A DNA stretch of 16,173 bases, from IMG/VR virus record IMGVR_UViG_640753024_000004, positions 1 through 16,173 of that record; one strand, given 5' to 3'. Numbering within the stretch: the first letter of the stretch is position 1; each line of letters begins with the position of its first letter. Under the pieces are notes generated by a model. The model had not been told where the DNA came from. It did no database searches and was given only the letters and a program-made list of their open reading frames with translations. The stretch is from a virus. Taxonomy: Duplodnaviria; Heunggongvirae; Uroviricota; Caudoviricetes. The position numbers and the translations under genes were made by a program. This document shows positions 1 to 12,765 of the stretch, in pieces.

Positions 1-996
1 TTATGGACGCATTATGGACATTCCTGACACCGGGTTAAGAGTCACAGCATCTTGTAAGAAATCCGGTGCAAAGTGTGCGTAGGTCATAGTTTGCTGAATG
101 TTAGAATGACCCAGGATGCGCTGCAATGTGATTATGTTACCTCCATTCATTATAAAATGTGTGGCAAATGTATGCCTCAAAACATGTACTGCTTGTCCGT
201 CAGGTAAATCGGGTTTTACTTCCCTGAGAGCGTTACGCACTTTGTAGTAACTGGCATTAAAAAGCCTGCCTGAATTTTTGGTCTTGATCCGTTTAATCAG
301 GTCCTGCGAAACGGGAATTGTCCTGCGTTTTCCGTTTTTAGTTTTCATAAACGTAACCATCTGGTTAATGATGTGTTCAGCTTTTAAATTAGACACTTCA
401 CTCCAGCGTCCACCAGTAGAAAGGCAGACCAGAGTTGCATTTAATTCATCACCATCAAGCATGGATAACAGCCGCGTAATCTCTTCACTGGACAAAAAAG
501 CCATTTCCGTAACAGCTTCACGTAACCGTTTAATCTCACGGAACGGGTTGTGGGAGTGGTATTCACCGGCGTCAATTAACTTGGTGAACATCCCGCTCAT
601 TATTGCCAGATGTCGATTTACGCTGGCTGGTTTTAGACCATCGTTCATCATTACAACGCGATAATCAGTTATCGTTTTCTTTGTTAGCTGGTCAGCTCTG
701 GACACTCCCATTTCTGCAAATTTGGCGATTATTGTCGTTAAACGCCCCCGTTCAATATCTCCACGCTCATGTGATTTTCCGTGATATATCCACCATCTAC
801 CTAACAACTCTGTAAGAGTTCGGCGGTCGGCTGGTTTCTCCAACCACTCTTTGTTGTGGTAGTTAACCAATACATGACGTTCGAATGCCTGAGCTTCACC
901 TTTAGTTTTAAATTTCCGCCTGATACGTTTTCCATCTGCACCCTGCGGTCTGACGTCCACTTCATAACGACCATCATCGAGCTTTTTAATAGACAT
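1..996 (-). CDS. int: Prophage tyrosine integrase (P2 Int-like), 331 aa
   Basis: Full ORF on the minus strand ending at the window edge. Position next to a leftward repressor gene matches the P2 int-C arrangement. Family assignment is from my reading of the translated sequence, not a search. Confidence 0.85.
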   Translation of the reverse strand: MSIKKLDDGRYEVDVRPQGADGKRIRRKFKTKGEAQAFERHVLVNYHNKEWLEKPADRRTLTELLGRWWIYHGKSHERGDIERGRLTTIIAKFAEMGVSRADQLTKKTITDYRVVMMNDGLKPASVNRHLAIMSGMFTKLIDAGEYHSHNPFREIKRLREAVTEMAFLSSEEITRLLSMLDGDELNATLVCLSTGGRWSEVSNLKAEHIINQMVTFMKTKNGKRRTIPVSQDLIKRIKTKNSGRLFNASYYKVRNALREVKPDLPDGQAVHVLRHTFATHFIMNGGNIITLQRILGHSNIQQTMTYAHFAPDFLQDAVTLNPVSGMSIMRP

Positions 997-3346: not shown

Positions 3347-3618
3347 GTATTCGTATTGAAATTGGCGAACGTTATGTCGTTACCAGTGACAGCTTTCAGT
3401 TTATTCTCCACGAGAAAAAGAGAGCGGAAAGCGGTAAAAACGCCGGTCAGGAATGGCTGGCGGTGGTTGGTTATTATCCGAAATTAAGCCAGCTCGTTTC
3501 CGGCCTGATGCATCACGATATTCTGACCGGAAGCGCAAAGTCTTTTGCTGATTTAAACGCGCAGGTTGAGCAACTCAGCAGGCGTTGTTCAGAGGCTTTT
3601 GGCTCATATGGCCGTTAA
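3343..3618 (+). CDS. Hypothetical early protein (P2 orf83 position), 91 aa
   Basis: Start overlaps the previous stop (ATGA). Its stop overlaps the start of gene A. Confidence 0.55.
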   Translation: MSIRIEIGERYVVTSDSFQFILHEKKRAESGKNAGQEWLAVVGYYPKLSQLVSGLMHHDILTGSAKSFADLNAQVEQLSRRCSEAFGSYGR

Positions 3619-5884
3619 AGCCTCCGGGCGTTTTGTCCCTCCGTCAGCATTTGCCGCAGGCACCGGTAAGGCGTTTACCGGTGCTTATGCATGGAACGCG
3701 CCACGCGAGGCTGTCGGGCGCGAAAGACCCCTTACACGTGACGAGATGCGTCAGGTGCAAGGGGTTTTATCCACGATTAACCGTCTGCCTTACTTTTTGC
3801 GCTCGCTGTTTACTTCACGCTATGACTACATCCGGCGCAATAAAAGCCCGGTGCACGGGTTTTATTTTCTCACATCCACTTTTCAGCGTCGTTTATGGCC
3901 GCGCATTGAGCGTGTGAATCAGCGCCATGAAATGAACACCGACGCGTCGTTGCTGTTTCTGGCAGAGCGTGACCACTATGCGCGCCTGCCGGGAATGAAT
4001 GACAAGGAGCTGAAAAAGTTTGCCGCCCGTATCTCATCGCAGCTTTTCATGATGTATGAGGAACTCAGCGATGCCTGGGTGGATGCGCATGGCGAAAAAG
4101 AATCGCTGTTTACGGATGAGGCGCAGGCTCACCTCTATGGTCATGTTGCTGGCGCTGCACGTGCTTTCAATATTTCCCCGCTCTACTGGAAAAAATACCG
4201 TAAAGGACAGATGACCACGAGGCAGGCATATTCTGCCATTGCCCGTCTGTTTAACGATGAGTGGTGGACTCATCAGCTCAAAGGCCAGCGTATGCGCTGG
4301 CATGAGGCGTTACTGATTGCTGTCGGGGAGGTGAATAAAGACCGTTCTCCTTATGCCAGTAAACATGCCATTCGTGATGTACGTGCACGCCGCCAGGCAA
4401 ATCTGGAATTTCTTAAATCGTGTGACCTTGAAAACAGGGAAACCGGCGAGCGCATCGACCTTATCAGTAAGGTGATGGGCAGTATTTCTAATCCTGAAAT
4501 TCGCCGGATGGAGCTGATGAACACCATTGCCGGCATTGAGCGTTACGCCGCCGCAGAGGGTGATGTGGGGATGTTTATCACGCTGACCGCGCCGTCAAAG
4601 TATCACCCGACACGTCAGGTCGGAAAAGGCGAAAGTAAAACCGTCCAGCTAAATCACGGCTGGAACGATGAGGCATTTAATCCAAAGGATGCGCAGCGTT
4701 ATCTCTGCCATATCTGGAGCCTGATGCGCACGGCATTCAAGGATAATGATTTACAGGTCTACGGTTTGCGTGTCGTCGAGCCACACCACGACGGAACGCC
4801 GCACTGGCATATGATGCTTTTTTGTAATCCACGCCAGCGTAACCAGATTATTGAAATCATGCGTCGCTACGCGCTCAAAGAGGATGGAGACGAAAGAGGA
4901 GCCGCGCGAAACCGTTTTCAGGCAAAACATCTTAACCGGGGCGGTGCTGCGGGGTATATCGCGAAATACATCTCAAAAAACATCGATGGCTATGCACTGG
5001 ATGGTCAGCTCGATAACGATACCGGCAGGCCACTGAAAGATACTGCTGCGGCTGTTACCGCATGGGCGTCAACGTGGCGCATTCCGCAATTTAAAACGGT
5101 TGGCCTGCCGACAATGGGGGCTTACCGTGAACTACGCAAATTGCCTCGCGGCGTCAGCATTGCTGATGAATTTGACGAACGCGTCGAGGCTGCACGCGCC
5201 GCCGCAGACAGTGGTGATTTTGCGTTGTATATCAGCGCGCAGGGCGGGGCAAATGTCCCGCGCGATTGTCAGACTGTCAGGGTCGCCCGTAGCCCGTCGG
5301 ATGACGTTAACGAGTACGAGGAAGAAGTCGAGAGAGTGGTCGGCATTTACGCGCCGCATCTCGGCGCGCGTCATATTCATATCACCAGAACGACGGACTG
5401 GCGCATTGTGCCGAAAGTTCCGGTCGTTGAGCCTTTGACTTTAAAAAGCGGCATCGCCGCGCCTCGGAGTCCTGTCAATAACTGTGGAAAGCTCACCGGT
5501 GGTGATACTTCGTTACCGGCTCCCACACCTTCTGAACACGCCGCAGCAGTGCTTAATCTGGTTGATGACGGTGTTATCGAATGGAACGACACGGAGGTCG
5601 TGAGGGCGCTCAGGGGGGCATTAAAACACGACCTGAGAACACCAAATCGTCAGCAAAGAAACGGAAGCCCGTTAAAACCACATGAAATTGCACCATCGGC
5701 CAGACTGACCCGGTCGGAAAGAATGCAAATTACCCGTATCCGCGTTGACCTTGCTCAGAACGGTATCAGGCCGCAGCGATGGGAGCTTGAGGCGCTGGCG
5801 CGTGGCGCGACCGTAAATTATTACGGGAAATCTTTCAATTATCAGGTCGCTGATGAGTGGCCTGGATTTTTGTTACCCATTTGA
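3608..5884 (+). CDS. A: Rolling-circle replication initiator endonuclease gpA (HUH family), about 758 aa
   Basis: Contains the HUH-type active-site tyrosine motif GYIAKYISKNIDG. The whole protein matches my recollection of P2 gpA. ATG 3608 (MAVKASGRF...) is preferred over the in-frame TTG at 3566. Confidence 0.9.
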   Translation: MAVKASGRFVPPSAFAAGTGKAFTGAYAWNAPREAVGRERPLTRDEMRQVQGVLSTINRLPYFLRSLFTSRYDYIRRNKSPVHGFYFLTSTFQRRLWPRIERVNQRHEMNTDASLLFLAERDHYARLPGMNDKELKKFAARISSQLFMMYEELSDAWVDAHGEKESLFTDEAQAHLYGHVAGAARAFNISPLYWKKYRKGQMTTRQAYSAIARLFNDEWWTHQLKGQRMRWHEALLIAVGEVNKDRSPYASKHAIRDVRARRQANLEFLKSCDLENRETGERIDLISKVMGSISNPEIRRMELMNTIAGIERYAAAEGDVGMFITLTAPSKYHPTRQVGKGESKTVQLNHGWNDEAFNPKDAQRYLCHIWSLMRTAFKDNDLQVYGLRVVEPHHDGTPHWHMMLFCNPRQRNQIIEIMRRYALKEDGDERGAARNRFQAKHLNRGGAAGYIAKYISKNIDGYALDGQLDNDTGRPLKDTAAAVTAWASTWRIPQFKTVGLPTMGAYRELRKLPRGVSIADEFDERVEAARAAADSGDFALYISAQGGANVPRDCQTVRVARSPSDDVNEYEEEVERVVGIYAPHLGARHIHITRTTDWRIVPKVPVVEPLTLKSGIAAPRSPVNNCGKLTGGDTSLPAPTPSEHAAAVLNLVDDGVIEWNDTEVVRALRGALKHDLRTPNRQQRNGSPLKPHEIAPSARLTRSERMQITRIRVDLAQNGIRPQRWELEALARGATVNYYGKSFNYQVADEWPGFLLPI

Positions 5885-6150
5885 GTAAAAATGCAGCGTG
5901 ATTTTATATGCCTTTGAATGGATTATGCGAAGCGCCTCTAAGGCAGATGAGGAGCAATAGCATGCTGAAGTAGAAGGCTAAATTGTATTGAATCGCTAGC
6001 ATGTAATTTAAGGCAGCTATTTGATTCGAGTCATAAAAGAGCATCTATTTCGGCTAATAAAACCATTGCGAGTGACCTTTTGTCGAAGCATAATTCATCT
6101 CGAGCGAAGTCTTGCTAGTCTTTCATCGGAATGATGACAGGCGCAAAAAA

Positions 6151-6174
6151 ACCACCCTGGCAGGTGGTTTTTTT
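6151..6174. terminator. Bidirectional rho-independent terminator (ACCACC-CTGGC-AGGTGGT hairpin with an A-run before and a T-run after)
   Basis: Seen directly: aaaaaaACCACCctggcaGGTGGTttttttt. It lies downstream of gene A on the plus strand and downstream of the 37-aa ORF on the minus strand. Confidence 0.5.
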
Positions 6175-6186
6175 GTTTGAAGCATA

Positions 6187-6300
6187 TTAAAGAATAATAC
6201 TTACATGGATATTACTGACGTTTACTGACAAACCACTTGGACTACCATATGGATAGCCAAAGAGGGCCAGAACGAGAATGCAGTAATAGCACTTCTTCAT
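6187..6300 (-). CDS. Candidate 37-aa peptide MKKCYYCILVLALFGYPYGSPSGLSVNVSNIHVSIIL
   Basis: ATG preceded by AGGAGGAGAT on the minus strand. The stop sits 13 nt from the terminator hairpin. The N-terminus is hydrophobic. The ORF is not in the supplied track because it is too short. Confidence 0.35.
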   Translation of the reverse strand: MKKCYYCILVLALFGYPYGSPSGLSVNVSNIHVSIIL

Positions 6301-6872
6301 ATCTCCTCCTGTAAGCAGAGGGCAATTTCCGCCGATATATGCGCTTCTGAGGCGGAGTTACTATTTAGCGAAGTCTTGCCCTGAAATAATGCTCTGTTTA
6401 AACGCAAAGTGATCTGGCATATCACCGAACAGAGAGCCTGAACAACACAACATATAGTATGTCGTTGTTTCTGGTTGCATTTTATGTTGTGTAATACTGG
6501 TTTTGCATCAAGGATGTTTGAGCTTTTTTTGATATAGCTCAAAGTAAAAAGCAGGGACTACGGATGATAAGGTATTGAAAGCAATGTAAATTTTTTAAAG
6601 TTATTGGTGGCTAAAAAATGCACGGTTTCAATATGGCGGACTTAAATAAGCAATTAAAAAAGTCATAAATATCACTAAAATCATGGTGTTACGTTTTTTT
6701 TGTGGGAGCTGCGGTGACGCTTAAGTTGATTTGTCATTAAATAAGCCGTGCATGCAACAAGTGAATGTTTTTGCATGCGTCGGGGATGCCCGTTCCAGCT
6801 GCTCGCGGTCAGAGCTGGTGCGGATCCATAGTATCTATGCAACTGCATTAAAACCGCCACATGAAGCGGGCG

Positions 6873-6891
6873 GGCGAGGCGGGGAAAGCAC
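6873..6891. other. cos site: exact match to the P2/P4 19-nt cohesive-end sequence GGCGAGGCGGGGAAAGCAC
   Basis: The 19-mer is seen directly. Identity to the P2 cos sequence is from memory. The position (after the gene A region, before the portal gene) matches the P2 prophage map. Confidence 0.7.
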
Positions 6892-6934
6892 CGCGCGTAA
6901 GATAAACAGAAGAGCGAAGGATTATGGTTGAGTA

Positions 6935-6997
6935 TTTGTGTTTTTGTACATATGATAAAAAGGTGTTTACGCTTAAAAACACATCAAAGGAGATGAT
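6935..6997 (+). promoter_or_regulatory. AT-rich putative promoter and RBS (AGGAG about 6 nt before the ATG) of the ATPase cassette
   Basis: Contains TTGTGT/TTGTAC and TATGAT-like hexamers and an SD sequence. Exact -35/-10 assignment is unresolved. Confidence 0.3.
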
Positions 6998-8299
6998 ATG
7001 GAAAATATAAAGATTGATAAGTTTCTCACTATTCAAAAAGTTGATATTCCTCTTAAGAAAGTGAATATATTTATTGGGCCTCAGGCACAGGGGAAAAGTG
7101 TCATTGCAAAGCTAATAAAATATTTTAAAGATTATCCTATGGATATACTACGAGCTTCAACAGAGGGTAAAACTAAAAGAGATATATTGAAGGAGCAAAA
7201 GAATAAGTTTAGTAAAATTTTCCCTCAGCAGTATTGGGCTGATGATGAGTTTTTTATTGAGTATAGTAATAAGCACTATTGGGTGCGGATTACTAATCGA
7301 AAAAATAGCAAAGGGTCATTGAAAATAGACCTTTCTGAGAATTTAACGAAGACGATTGCTAAACTTCGTTTGATTGTACGAAAGGATTTAGATGAAAATA
7401 TTGAGAATTCACTTGCAGAAAGCGTTACGAGAAGACGTAAACGCGGAATTGAACATGAATTGCGAGTATGTCTTTCTCTAGGATTGTTTTCAGAACCAGA
7501 AACAAAGCTTGAAAGTGTTTTTTATATCCCCGCAGGGCGCTCTTTTTTTGCTAATTTGCAAAAAAATGTGTTTTCATTTTTATCCAGTAGTATAGAAATT
7601 GACTACTTTTTGACAGAGTTTGGTTCTCTGTATGAACAAACAAAAAAATTATTTAACCAAGATTACATGATTAGGATGCTTAGGGGGGCTGTGCCTCAAC
7701 ATGTTAATAAACTTGTGGAGGAGTTGATTTGCGGAAAATATATAACAGAAAAGGGTGAGGATTTTATTCGTCATGCTGCTAAGAAGACGAATCTTAACAA
7801 CTCGAGCTCAGGGCAGCAAGAAGCGTTACCAATGGCTTTAATGTTATCCTCATGGCCGTATTTACAGTCTGTGACTAGTAAGAGTTTTATTATTGAGGAG
7901 CCGGAGGCTCATCTGTTTCCTTCTGCCCAAGCAAAAGTTGTATCTTTAATAGCCTCAGCGTATAACCAAGCAGAAAGCTATTGTAGCTATACAATAACAA
8001 CACATAGTCCATATATTCTAAGTGCCTTCAATAATTTGATTCAAGCAGGTAATGCATTAAAGTGTATTAAGGGCAAGAATAATACCGATATCGAACGCTT
8101 ATATAAGCTTGTTCCAGAGTCTCAAATTATTGATTTTGATGATGTGACAGCTTATATGGTTAATGCTGGGAAAGTGACGGAAATACTGGATTCCGAACTA
8201 AATATATTAGATGCGAATGAAATAGATAGGATTTCCTCTATTTTTTCAGAGACTTTTGATGCATTGATTGATATCGAATATTCGGCTACTGTGAATTAG
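6998..8299 (+). CDS. ABC-type ATPase of the OLD/AAA_21-like class, 433 aa; cargo gene
   Basis: Walker A GPQAQGKS, ABC-signature-like SSGQQ, Walker B/D-loop FIIEEPEAHLFP, H-loop TTHSP. AT-rich codon usage unlike the prophage backbone. No C-terminal TOPRIM or nuclease domain is apparent. Confidence 0.85.
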   Translation: MENIKIDKFLTIQKVDIPLKKVNIFIGPQAQGKSVIAKLIKYFKDYPMDILRASTEGKTKRDILKEQKNKFSKIFPQQYWADDEFFIEYSNKHYWVRITNRKNSKGSLKIDLSENLTKTIAKLRLIVRKDLDENIENSLAESVTRRRKRGIEHELRVCLSLGLFSEPETKLESVFYIPAGRSFFANLQKNVFSFLSSSIEIDYFLTEFGSLYEQTKKLFNQDYMIRMLRGAVPQHVNKLVEELICGKYITEKGEDFIRHAAKKTNLNNSSSGQQEALPMALMLSSWPYLQSVTSKSFIIEEPEAHLFPSAQAKVVSLIASAYNQAESYCSYTITTHSPYILSAFNNLIQAGNALKCIKGKNNTDIERLYKLVPESQIIDFDDVTAYMVNAGKVTEILDSELNILDANEIDRISSIFSETFDALIDIEYSATVN

Positions 8300-8307
8300 G
8301 TGATTGA

Positions 8308-8745
8308 ATGTGTAAAAATTGCAAAGGAAAAACAAAAAATAAAATCATTGTGCTATCTGATAAAGGAACGTCAACGCAATTGTCAGTCACAAATGATAAT
8401 GAGTTGGAAGTTGAGCATAAGTTAATAGATGGTTGCGCTATTGTTGTTGGAGAGCGGTGTGATCATTATTTGAAGATTTATAACAATCAGGATGTTTCAC
8501 ATCTTTTTGTTGAACTTAAAGGAAGTGATGTTGAAAAAGCTGTTAAACAGATAGTGACAACTTTAAAGTCAGGTGTGATTAATGTAGGTGCTAAAGAAAA
8601 AAAACATGGTGCTATTGTTAGCACTAGGAATCCGCTAAACTCAACAGAAACCAATAGGTTAAAGAAGAAAATTCTTTTGAGTGACGGAGTGAATTTGCAT
8701 TTCTATAAAATGAAGGCGCAGCAAAAAATAACTTCTTTTACATGA
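8308..8745 (+). CDS. Small Cys-rich partner protein, 145 aa, of unknown function; possible nuclease-like effector
   Basis: Starts 9 nt after the ATPase stop with AGGTGA upstream, so it is an operon partner. Has CxxC (C2,C5) plus C43/C51, and a D52...E69-L-K71 arrangement that could be a PD-(D/E)xK-like core; the latter is speculative. Confidence 0.7.
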   Translation: MCKNCKGKTKNKIIVLSDKGTSTQLSVTNDNELEVEHKLIDGCAIVVGERCDHYLKIYNNQDVSHLFVELKGSDVEKAVKQIVTTLKSGVINVGAKEKKHGAIVSTRNPLNSTETNRLKKKILLSDGVNLHFYKMKAQQKITSFT

Positions 8746-8758
8746 AGTGTTCTCTTGT

Positions 8759-8782
8759 ACAGGCATGCATTTGCATGCCTGT
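8759..8782. terminator. Near-perfect palindrome ACAGGCATGCA-TT-TGCATGCCTGT after the cassette; possible terminator or protein-binding site
   Basis: 11-bp stem seen directly. The T-tail is weak (cttttac). Confidence 0.35.
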
Positions 8783-8848
8783 CGTGTAATCTTTTACACT
8801 ATATTTGTGTTGGTTCTAATCTTGTTATGTGTTTGTTTCGGTGATGGG

Positions 8849-9391
8849 TCATAATGAATAAGTTCGAAAGCGAAATACATCTTCGCCAACCCAACAGTTA
8901 ATTTCTTTACATCGCTCTTGGAGGAACGTTAGCTCGTTGCGTACAAAGACTTGTGCTGCTTTTGTTACATCTCCAAATCCTCCTGTGTTGTTGGGCATCA
9001 TTCCTATCATTTGGGGAGGCACGCGATGAGCACTCATTAGATCTTCAGCACTTGCTTTTTTGATATTAAAAAAATCGTCCTTCGTTGCCACTTCACTGAG
9101 CGGGATAATTTTAATGCCGTCGGCTTTCCCCTGTGGGGCATAGAGAAACAGATTTTTAAAGTTATTACGGCCTTTCGACTTAACCATGTTTTCGCGAAGC
9201 ATTTCGATATCGTTGCGATCCTGCACGGCATCGGTGACGTACATGATGTATCCGGCATGAGCGCCGTTTTCGTAATACTTGCGGCGGAACAGCGTGGCCG
9301 ACTCATTCAGCCAGGCAGAGTTAAGGGCGCTGAGATATTCCGGCAGGCCGTACAGCTCCTGATTAATATCCGGCTCCAGCAGGTGAAACAC
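8849..9391 (-). pseudogene. Q: Portal protein gene Q, 3' portion only (about 180 codons, C-terminal half)
   Basis: The translation matches what I recall of the C-terminal half of the P2 portal protein (P2 Q is about 344 aa). The reading frame has no plausible N-terminus and runs into the E/E' remnant. Confidence 0.75.
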
Positions 9392-9394
9392 GGA

Positions 9395-9647
9395 GCCGGG
9401 TGACCGAGCAGGAAGTCGCCGCGCTGGAACTGCCTGACCTTGTGGCGCTGGCCGGTAAGGTGGTCGGTTTTTTGTCGCCGAACTCGGTGCAGTGACGTTT
9501 CCGAAAAATCTCTCGGTCGATGACCTGATGGCGGATGTGGCAGTGATATTTCACTGGCCGCCATCAGAACTGTATCCCATGAGCCTGACCGAACTCATCA
9601 CATGGCGCGAAAAGGCGCTCCGGCGAAGCGGAAACACGAATGAGTAA
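9395..9647 (+). pseudogene. E: 3' remnant of tail chaperone genes E and E' (E frame to the stop at 9493-9495; E' extension frame to the stop at 9645-9647, overlapping the T start)
   Basis: Two overlapping frames: ...TEQEVAALELPDLVALAGKVVGFLSPNSVQ* and ...FFVAELGAVTFPKNLSVDDLMADVAVIFHWPPSELYPMSLTELITWREKALRRSGNTNE*, joined at a T6G slippery site. No start codon or 5' part is present. Confidence 0.6.
9468..9474 (+). other. Programmed -1 frameshift slippery sequence TTTTTTG of the E/E' pair
   Basis: T6G is seen where the E frame (GGT TTT TTG) and E' frame (TTT TTT GTC) overlap. A frameshift of this kind is established for the P2 E/E' tail chaperone pair. Confidence 0.5.

Positions 9648-10798: not shown

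Positions 10799-12765
<1,967 letters not shown>

Follow-up and report, generated by a model that had tools for sequence, protein, structure and literature searches.

The two genes that lie between cos and the portal gene of a P2-like prophage in Escherichia coli E24377A are, by sequence homology, a real and intact copy of WonAB, a named phage-defence system. We put a probability of about 0.8 on the fuller reading, namely an intact wonAB operon that serves as a two-gene abortive-infection defence system and is carried as P2-prophage cargo. The window (the whole 16,173 nt stretch of DNA that was analysed) matches E. coli E24377A (NC_009801.1) at 100%, and RefSeq lists the genes as ECE24377A_RS06440, the ATPase gene (protein WP_000427721), and ECE24377A_RS06445.

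Identity of the pair and its published prototype

WonAB (WASA OLD-ABC ATPase nuclease) was described from the WASA-1 prophage of Vibrio cholerae (Adams et al., 2025, Nat Microbiol, PMC12137116). The finding made here is correct but already known: the family received its name and its validation in 2025, and two published supplementary tables contain the locus. It is not new because this exact locus appears in Adams et al. (2025), where ECE24377A_RS06440/RS06445 are WonA/WonB hit 2 of the authors' MacSyFinder model (Supplementary Table 4, PMC12137116). The same pair is 'System 81', a P2-hotspot candidate with 45 occurrences, in Table S5B of Rousset et al. (2022). In the literature searched, no published phage test of the E. 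coli wonAB copy was found.

The prototype and the E. coli cassette are both prophage-borne operons with the same gene order, a ~430-aa ATPase followed by a ~140-aa PD-(D/E)xK protein. They differ in vehicle (the cos–Q slot of a P2-like prophage rather than WASA-1) and in host, and their sequences have diverged moderately: WonA is 37% identical to WonA of V. cholerae IEC224 over 412 aa (BLASTP, E 1e-75) and WonB is 39% identical to its counterpart over 80 aa (E 1e-12), with K71 of the one aligned to K71 of the other. The V. cholerae system protects against ICP1 and, when expressed in E. coli, against Vequintavirinae of the BASEL collection, both genes being required; defence is lost in the WonA K34A, R182A, E300A and H333A mutants and in WonB K71A (PMC12137116). 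The equivalents of all the mutated residues are retained in the E. coli pair (WonA K33, R181, E301 and H336; WonB K71) and are invariant among homologues.

The preliminary description of this DNA had proposed a candidate unclassified anti-phage system that could not be placed in a described family. An anti-phage role is very probable, whereas 'unclassified' has to be dropped, since both WonAB and System 81 had been reported, and the homology to WonAB (listed as hit 2, PMC12137116) places the pair directly. That description had itself named a match of both proteins to a named defence family as evidence that would count against it, and this is what was found.

Sequence and fold of WonA and WonB

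As the preliminary description had it, the cassette encodes a 433-aa ATPase tightly coupled to a 145-aa partner; wonA (6998–8299) and wonB (8308–8745) are both on the + strand and 8 nt apart. WonA is an OLD-type ABC ATPase by Pfam and BLASTP and has no fused nuclease. The OLD/AAA_21-type motifs noted earlier are all located: GPQAQGKS (27–34, with the Walker A lysine K33), the SSGQQ signature (270–274), FIIEEPE (297–303, with Walker B E300/E301) and TTHSP (334–338, with the H-loop H336). A further motif is IPAGR (177–181, with R181). None of the motif residues varies among 29 homologues. AAA_15 (4.7e-21) and AAA_21 are the only Pfam domains in the protein, and the earlier remark that it lacks the fused TOPRIM domain of P2 Old is borne out by Pfam, which finds no TOPRIM match in WonA. 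The AF2 model of WonA (pLDDT 85.6) has an ABC ATPase fold whose nearest solved relatives are PtuA (Foldseek E about 1e-9, TM 0.4–0.5) and Rad50. A structural search was needed to see the PtuA likeness, because the sequence search of PDB chains returned only OLD (6p74), over residues 296–341 and at a marginal E of 0.006.

Homology and an AF2 model (pLDDT 85.4) predict that WonB is a nuclease effector of the PD-(D/E)xK restriction-endonuclease fold. The Foldseek neighbours of the model are BamHI, EcoT38I, PaqCI, FokI and Cap4, and also NucS. Across 12 homologues from five phyla D41, C51, D52, E69, L70, K71, G72, A78 and Q81 are invariant; D52, E69 and K71 (a D…ELK motif) are the candidate catalytic residues, with D41 and Q81 invariant as well. 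These conserved acidic and lysine residues are clustered within what is predicted to be a variant of the PD-(D/E)xK fold. The predicted nuclease nature of the partner is what the preliminary description had missed. Pfam, NCBIfam and PHROGs contain no match to WonB and only the generic AAA_15/AAA_21 for WonA, and the nearest PADLOC entry is the candidate system PDC-M29.

PDC-M29 is a guilt-by-embedding prediction (Payne et al., 2024, bioRxiv 10.1101/2024.01.29.577857), and a literature search for 'PDC-M29' returned no papers. With the profiles of PADLOC-DB 2.0.0 (2023), the two proteins have PDC-M29A (1.9e-31, in three stretches) and PDC-M29B (1.6e-4, weak) as their best models, and V. cholerae WonB, too, scores best against PDC-M29B (1.2e-9). 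Because these matches are partial or weak, the pair in the window is a relative and no core member of the PDC-M29 models. All WonAB homologues fall in a larger family of the same architecture found in 0.96% of genomes (PMC12137116), and the pair probably lies inside this wider 'OLD-ABC + novel REase' family.

Several described systems resemble WonAB in part. Septu PtuAB and the PtuAB of type I-A retrons likewise join an ABC ATPase sensor to a small, separate nuclease effector, but PtuB is an HNH nuclease where WonB is of the PD-(D/E)xK type, the sequences are only 10–15% identical, and the NCBIfam PtuA model scores 30 bits against WonA (cut-off 500). Septu was rejected as an assignment on the grounds that WonB has no HNH or PtuB match in Pfam or PADLOC and carries a D…ExK motif instead. 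PARIS, too, pairs an OLD-type ABC ATPase (AAA_15/21) with a nuclease that is a separate protein, and it occupies P4/P2 cos-proximal hotspots; it acts by abortive infection, shutting off translation through tRNA cleavage, and its AriA model in PADLOC matches WonA at 7e-26. AriB, however, is a DUF4435/TOPRIM protein of ~300 aa compared with 145 aa for WonB, and PARIS was set aside as WonB has no DUF4435, TOPRIM or AriB match in Pfam or PADLOC at E ≤ 1.

In their ABC ATPase motifs P2 Old and GajA deviate in the same OLD-type manner as WonA, and the gpA–gpQ hotspot that holds wonAB is also where P2 Old sits, but Old and GajA both carry a fused C-terminal TOPRIM nuclease that WonA lacks and Gabija adds the UvrD-like GajB. 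The OLD family (classes 1–4) was rejected on the TOPRIM result from Pfam and on length (433 aa against 586 aa in P2 Old), and Gabija because GajA models cover only residues ~190–345 of WonA (best stretches 248–345) and the partner has 145 aa and is not a helicase. PD-T4-4 (Vassallo et al., 2022) is again an operon of an ATPase and a small protein and is regarded as related, with differences in the ATPase inserts and C-terminal extension (PMC12137116). PD-T4-4_A matches the C-terminal half of WonA (6.5e-17, PADLOC); the system was rejected because WonB has no PD-T4-4_B match at E ≤ 1, and even V. cholerae WonB reaches just 0.006. The preliminary description had found the partner much smaller than AriB, PtuB and GajB, and that it fits none of them agrees with the Pfam and PADLOC results.

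The cos–Q slot, control signals and distribution

The left landmark of the slot is the P2 cos cohesive-end 19-mer GGCGAGGCGGGGAAAGCAC (6873–6891, + strand), an exact match to cosL/cosR of NC_001895; it lies outside the wonAB system itself. Rightward from cos, sequence homology with P2 and with other P2-like prophages is lost after ~10 bp, at about 6897–6903. The right landmark is the 3′ remnant of the portal gene Q (8849–9409, − strand), annotated in RefSeq as a portal pseudogene without its N-terminus. In phage P2 the Q stop codon is 167 bp from cosL, whereas the cos–Q gap in the window is 1957 bp, and the GC content of the cassette is 34.6%, lower than in the window as a whole (48.5%) or in gene A (53.4%). 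Both the AT-rich insert and the portal gene remnant of the preliminary description are real, and its proposal of cos-proximal defence cargo in a P2-like prophage is supported: the gpA–gpQ interval is an established defence hotspot (Rousset et al., 2022), and in prophages that share this backbone the cos–Q slot holds a SIR2 gene or another gene. The E24377A prophage is degraded, with a truncated portal gene, deleted late genes and ISEc62 in gene T (RefSeq annotation); ~20 kb has been lost and one IS gained around the intact pair. In this now-defective P2-like prophage wonAB is swappable, horizontally acquired accessory cargo of the cos–Q slot.

The last ~65 codons of the Q remnant (8849–9047) are a diverged allele of lower GC content (42.7%) that travels with the cassette, and in the comparison of Q proteins the divergence is confined to the C-terminal ~65 residues. 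DNA homology to P2 restarts only at 9048 in the window and at 9018–9048 in prophages with other cargo. The right-hand, cos–Q slot recombines within the 3′ end of the portal gene. Cos divides the P2 hotspot into two cargo slots whose contents vary independently of each other. One possibility is that cos–Q cargo is exchanged jointly with the portal C-terminus, which would couple the swapping of defence genes to a structural gene.

The preliminary description gave the cassette its own putative promoter, a ribosome-binding site and a terminal palindrome. The Shine–Dalgarno sequence AAGGAG of wonA (6987–6992, + strand) is evident in the sequence itself, with 5 nt between it and the ATG at 6998. The candidate sigma-70 promoter, TTGAGT-17-TATGAT (6928–6956, + strand), matches 9 of 12 consensus positions and lies 41 nt upstream of wonA; it is only putative because such matches are no commoner than in shuffled sequence (consensus scan of the region: 11 observed, 10.4 expected). 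The palindrome (8759–8782, + strand) is a perfect inverted repeat with 11-nt arms, hence a hairpin with an 11-bp stem, whose predicted RNA fold of −23.5 kcal/mol (z = −6.35) was equalled in stability by none of 200 shuffles. Together with a second short hairpin it occupies 8759–8799 (+ strand), between the convergent wonB and Q, and although these hairpins have no canonical T-tract they are probably a transcription terminator belonging to the cassette. An Rfam scan of the whole window returned no RNA families. GCATGC motifs also occur to the left of cos, which had suggested that the palindrome might be P2 backbone (such as a terminase or cos-related site); it is not, because it is missing from prophages of the same backbone with other cargo in the slot. 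It is present in another wonAB-bearing prophage (L002).

The cassette occurs in 10 of 5426 complete E. coli genomes. Besides the genome of E24377A, eight complete genomes have the allele in an intact P2-like prophage; strain 2452 is an example of a strain with the intact prophage. The two proteins differ from those of an intact prophage by five and two amino acids, respectively, and dN/dS between the two E. coli alleles is uninformative because only 16 nt differ; the upstream region, ribosome-binding site and terminator are 98% identical. More distantly, an ATPase of ~430 aa with a homologue of 138–145 aa directly after it is found, in genomic surroundings that are unrelated, in Pseudomonas aeruginosa, Nostocales, Enterobacter, Serratia and Kosakonia. 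The two-gene arrangement is retained in six other taxa and the pair is conserved across phyla. SymE and HicB toxin–antitoxin genes neighbour the pair in Enterobacter and Kosakonia, and HigBA in P. aeruginosa. The cassette has zero megablast matches among phage records. With WonA, tblastn returns just two distant matches in phage, both uncultured phage contigs, and plasmids yield nothing at E ≤ 1e-20; among sequenced phage isolates and plasmids, then, the cassette is rare.

Probable mode of action and alternatives

We infer the phage-defence activity of the E. coli copy, and each step of its likely mechanism, from the V. cholerae experiments (PMC12137116). By this analogy WonA would be an OLD-type ABC ATPase dimer that binds and hydrolyses ATP and acts as infection sensor and activator, holding WonB, a predicted minimal PD-(D/E)xK nuclease and the putative effector, on its C-terminal extensions (residues ~380–433 of the E. 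coli protein). The complex would be switched on after the infecting phage begins DNA replication, and the nuclease activity of WonB would then shut off translation, with tRNA or rRNA rather than bulk DNA as the probable target. No phage structural proteins would be made and the infection would abort without lysis; free WonB may be kept low through Lon proteolysis. In the source paper, too, the RNA target of WonB is no more than an inference (PMC12137116). The best-matching solved relatives of WonB are DNA endonucleases, an uneasy fit with an RNA target.

Direct cutting of DNA, with WonA loading onto phage DNA or sensing it and WonB working as a restriction-like endonuclease, as in OLD, Gabija, Septu and Lamassu-type systems, is an improbable alternative. 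The folds nearest to WonB (FokI, BamHI, EcoT38I, PaqCI, NucS and Cap4) would suit it, as would the DNA-associated PtuA and Rad50 nearest to WonA, and the E. coli proteins are just 37–39% identical to the V. cholerae pair. In V. cholerae, however, ICP1 DNA replication proceeds, protein synthesis halts although mRNA persists, and overproduction of WonB stops translation and leaves genomic DNA intact (PMC12137116); Pfam finds a DNA-binding domain in neither protein. We regard as less probable still a toxin–antitoxin or addiction module that stabilizes the prophage or islet, with WonB as toxin, WonA as antitoxin and defence as a secondary effect. WonB is highly toxic when overproduced in V. cholerae, AAA_21 bears the Pfam label 'putative AbiEii toxin', the pair has stayed intact in a prophage that lost ~20 kb and gained an IS, and in other genera it lies beside SymE, HicB or HigBA. 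Yet WonB is no longer toxic when WonA is absent or ATPase-dead, and cells tolerate the loss of wonA or of the whole wonAB pair (V. cholerae, PMC12137116); together these results rule out simple sequestration. A large ATPase gene in first position and the ATPase requirement are also unlike classical type II modules.

Equally slight is the chance that the cassette, intact in E24377A, is a silent relic, unexpressed or non-functional owing to the defective prophage. The truncated portal gene, deleted late genes and ISEc62 insertion, the chance-level promoter prediction and the low frequency of the cassette among complete E. coli genomes are compatible with this, and the decay of the prophage means that wonAB expression in E24377A is not guaranteed. 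Against it, neither reading frame is truncated and no catalytic residue has been lost, the proteins and control regions are nearly those of the intact-prophage allele (only five and two amino-acid changes; 98% identity), and defence cargo in lysogens is usually expressed from its own promoter (Rousset et al., 2022). An abortive-infection operon remains the preferred reading.

With only 37–39% identity to the validated pair, phage range, trigger and target could differ, although we think it unlikely that the P2-borne E. coli WonAB is functionally different from the V. cholerae prototype. It might respond to another trigger or act on other phages, for example competing P2-like phages, P4 satellites or other coliphages, and WonB might have a different nucleic-acid target. 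Since the pair is native to E. coli, and to an ETEC strain that has been studied well, the genetic tools of E. coli and the BASEL phages could be used to address what triggers WonA and which RNA or DNA WonB cuts; if functionally distinct, it would provide a tractable E. coli model for the substrate of a minimal PD-(D/E)xK effector. One visible difference from the prototype lies in the cysteines of WonB: C5 and C43 are extra conserved residues that V. cholerae WonB lacks, and together with C51 they are common to most WonB homologues and might form a metal or redox site.

The wonAB cassette and its decayed host prophage

The window matches Escherichia coli O139:H28 E24377A (NC_009801.1) at 100% identity, where pflA and pflB flank the insertion of a P2-like prophage (1281-2078 and 18602-19957 in L001, the window locus with its chromosomal flanks). 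The intact wonAB-bearing prophage of strain 2452 occupies the same pflA-pflB site. After the integrase gene (1-996, minus strand) come C, cox and the early genes. Replication gene A spans 3608-5884; between it and cos, the P2 cohesive-end 19-mer GGCGAGGCGGGGAAAGCAC at 6873-6891, is an unannotated stretch of 888 bp (5873-6760). Beyond cos lie a 433-aa ORF (wonA, 6998-8299, plus strand), a 145-aa ORF (wonB, 8308-8745, plus strand) and the 3′ portion of portal gene Q (8849-9409, minus strand), annotated as a pseudogene without its N-terminus.

The features that the preliminary description reported for this region are confirmed, the promoter being the one weak element. The extra DNA between cos and Q amounts to ~1.8 kb, whereas the Q gene of P2 stops 167 bp from cosL; old and tin of P2 sit across cos from Q. 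The cassette is AT-rich (GC 34.6% versus 53.4% in gene A), every ATPase motif quoted is present, an AAGGAG ribosome-binding site lies 5 nt ahead of the start codon, the two ORFs are tightly coupled (8-nt gap) and a perfect palindrome with an 11-bp stem closes the cassette (8759-8782; RNA fold -23.5 kcal/mol, z = -6.35). Pfam finds neither a TOPRIM nor any other nuclease domain in the ATPase. The promoter proposed for the cassette is present as TTGAGT-17-TATGAT at 6928-6956 (9/12 match), but such matches are no commoner than in shuffled sequence.

The prophage itself is decayed between 9388 and 14216. The portal gene ends early at 9409, where it adjoins a fragment of tail gene E/E′, and thus the block of capsid, lysis and tail-fibre genes has been deleted roughly in its entirety. 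The tape-measure gene T is interrupted by the IS21-family element ISEc62 (istA 10799-11971, istB 11971-12765). The wonAB cassette is intact despite this decay.

Assignment to the WonAB family

The ATPase belongs to a large family (> 6000 database matches), with full-length relatives in Pseudomonas, Enterobacter and cyanobacteria that are 40-50% identical to it. It matches Pfam AAA_15 (4.7e-21) and AAA_21, and PADLOC ranks the candidate PDC-M29A (1.9e-31) and AriA (7e-26) highest, ahead of many GajA, PtuA and HEC-01A ATPase models. The predicted structure (pLDDT 85.6, pTM 0.88) has PtuA (Septu, retron I-A) and Rad50 as its nearest folds (Foldseek E ~1e-9, TM 0.4-0.5). The 145-aa partner matched no Pfam, NCBIfam or PHROG family, and its sole PADLOC match, to PDC-M29B, is weak (1.6e-4).

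Rousset et al. (2022) list this exact protein pair in their Table S5B as the P2-hotspot ‘System 81, AAA_15/AAA_21, 45 occurrences’, a system that does not appear in the tested-systems tables of that paper. WonAB was described as a two-gene operon of the Vibrio cholerae WASA-1 prophage, WonA being an OLD-type ABC ATPase and WonB a variant PD-(D/E)xK nuclease (Adams et al., 2025, Nat Microbiol, PMC12137116). Supplementary Table 4 of PMC12137116 gives 198 WonAB hits; hit 2 is NC_009801.1 ECE24377A_RS06440 (WonA) with ECE24377A_RS06445 (WonB), whose sequences are identical to the window proteins. Independent comparison with WonA and WonB of V. cholerae IEC224, for which the same table was the source, gave 37% identity over 412 aa (E 1e-75) for WonA and 39% over 80 aa (E 1e-12) for WonB. 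The residues mutagenized in V. cholerae align with K33, R181, E301 and H336 of the window WonA and with K71 of its WonB. The best PADLOC model of V. cholerae WonB is also PDC-M29B (1.2e-9). PDC-M29 is a guilt-by-embedding candidate and so best regarded as a relative in the ‘OLD-ABC ATPase + novel REase’ family, the wider group that, according to Adams et al., takes in all WonAB homologues (PMC12137116). The cassette is therefore a member of the named, validated WonAB family and is itself already listed in print; the defence interpretation put forward earlier was right in kind, and the label ‘unclassified’ is no longer current.

Spread of the pair and its place in the P2 hotspot

The two genes form a conserved, mobile module: in every context examined, the gene directly after that for the ATPase encodes a small-protein homologue (138-145 aa). 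The order holds in Nostocales; in Serratia marcescens the pair is a bare two-gene insertion amid housekeeping genes, and in Enterobacter it lies in a lambdoid prophage with replication genes on one side and rusA on the other. The pairs of Enterobacter hormaechei and Kosakonia adjoin symE, hicB and hcp, with a glycoside hydrolase and MFS transporter pair nearby, and that of Pseudomonas aeruginosa lies beside HigBA and Pf-like phage genes. Of 5426 complete E. coli genomes, 10 carry the cassette, each time on the chromosome; the one other copy inspected occupies the same cos-Q position in an intact P2-like prophage.

The neighbours of the wonAB homologues are themselves conflict-type genes (6846-7682 in L006, 6467-8921 in L014 and 3653-4248 in L003, three contexts elsewhere). 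Directly after the Nostocales pair come a 134-aa gene and an HNH gene, a Tlde1-domain gene accompanies HicB, SymE and Hcp in Enterobacter and Kosakonia, and in P. aeruginosa HigBA is upstream and the filamentous-phage genes downstream.

The gpA-gpQ interval of P2-like phages is a hotspot for anti-phage systems (Rousset et al., 2022). Right of cos the window stays homologous to P2, and to prophages that share its A-to-cos segment, for only ~10 bp (to ~6900); homology to P2 and to other-cargo prophages restarts within Q, at 9018-9048. Since homology resumes only there, exchange of cos-Q cargo seems to involve recombination within the 3′ end of Q, a structural gene; the other breakpoint seems to lie ~10 bp right of cos. 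P2-like prophages with this backbone hold other cargo in the slot: in strain EC2001 (L018, 5116-7554) a SIR2-family protein of 812 aa and, in ETEC1730 (L019, 5265-6266), an unannotated, unrelated 333-aa protein, WP_053285577, which may be a further defence gene. The 888-bp A-cos segment is present in 178 of the 5426 complete E. coli genomes, compared with 10 for the cassette, and as the same A-cos backbone carries different cos-Q cargo, the cos-Q slot swaps independently of the A-cos slot.

The final ~65 codons of Q (8849-9047, minus strand) are a diverged allele of lower GC (42.7%) co-inherited with the cassette. No gene is annotated in the 888-bp stretch and Rfam gives no match there; its ORFs are all short (≤ 81 aa) and it contains a perfect 13-nt inverted repeat (6144-6175). 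In the other wonAB prophage, that of strain 2452, this slot holds three genes instead, one GNAT and two hypothetical.

Proposed action of WonA and WonB

In V. cholerae, complete protection against ICP1 requires both wonA and wonB, and protection is abolished by K34A, R182A, E300A or H333A in WonA and by K71A in WonB; expressed in E. coli, the V. cholerae pair blocks all BASEL Vequintavirinae (PMC12137116). Infection is aborted without lysis once phage DNA replication is under way, WonB is Lon-labile, and excess WonB is toxic only with active WonA, translation stopping while DNA stays intact (PMC12137116). Direct DNA restriction by the pair is not favoured, nor is a toxin-antitoxin or addiction role. 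The best-supported account, with every step and the phenotype carried over from V. cholerae, is that a WonA dimer would sense infection and, using ATP, license WonB, whose nuclease activity would shut down translation, probably by cutting tRNA or rRNA, so that infection aborts. At the E24377A locus itself the basis is homology, residue conservation, folds, conservation of the pair and hotspot context; that the cassette is a silent relic in E24377A is likewise not favoured. Later WonAB literature yielded V. cholerae papers only, and no published structure, trigger or substrate was found in the literature searched; the cassette provides an allele native to E. coli in which the WonAB trigger and target could be worked out.

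Residues D41, C51, D52, E69-L70-K71-G72, A78 and Q81 are invariant in WonB homologues, both among 14 relatives, most of them close, and in 12 sequences from Gammaproteobacteria, Betaproteobacteria, Desulfovibrionia, Cyanobacteria, Bacilli and Spirochaetia, a pattern that is a D...ExK signature.

WonB (8308-8745) has cysteines at C2, C5, C43 and C51. C51 is invariant across every homologue examined and C5 and C43 are kept in most; both of the latter are missing from the validated V. cholerae WonB, and C43 also from that of Brachyspira. The cysteines may form a metal-binding or redox site.
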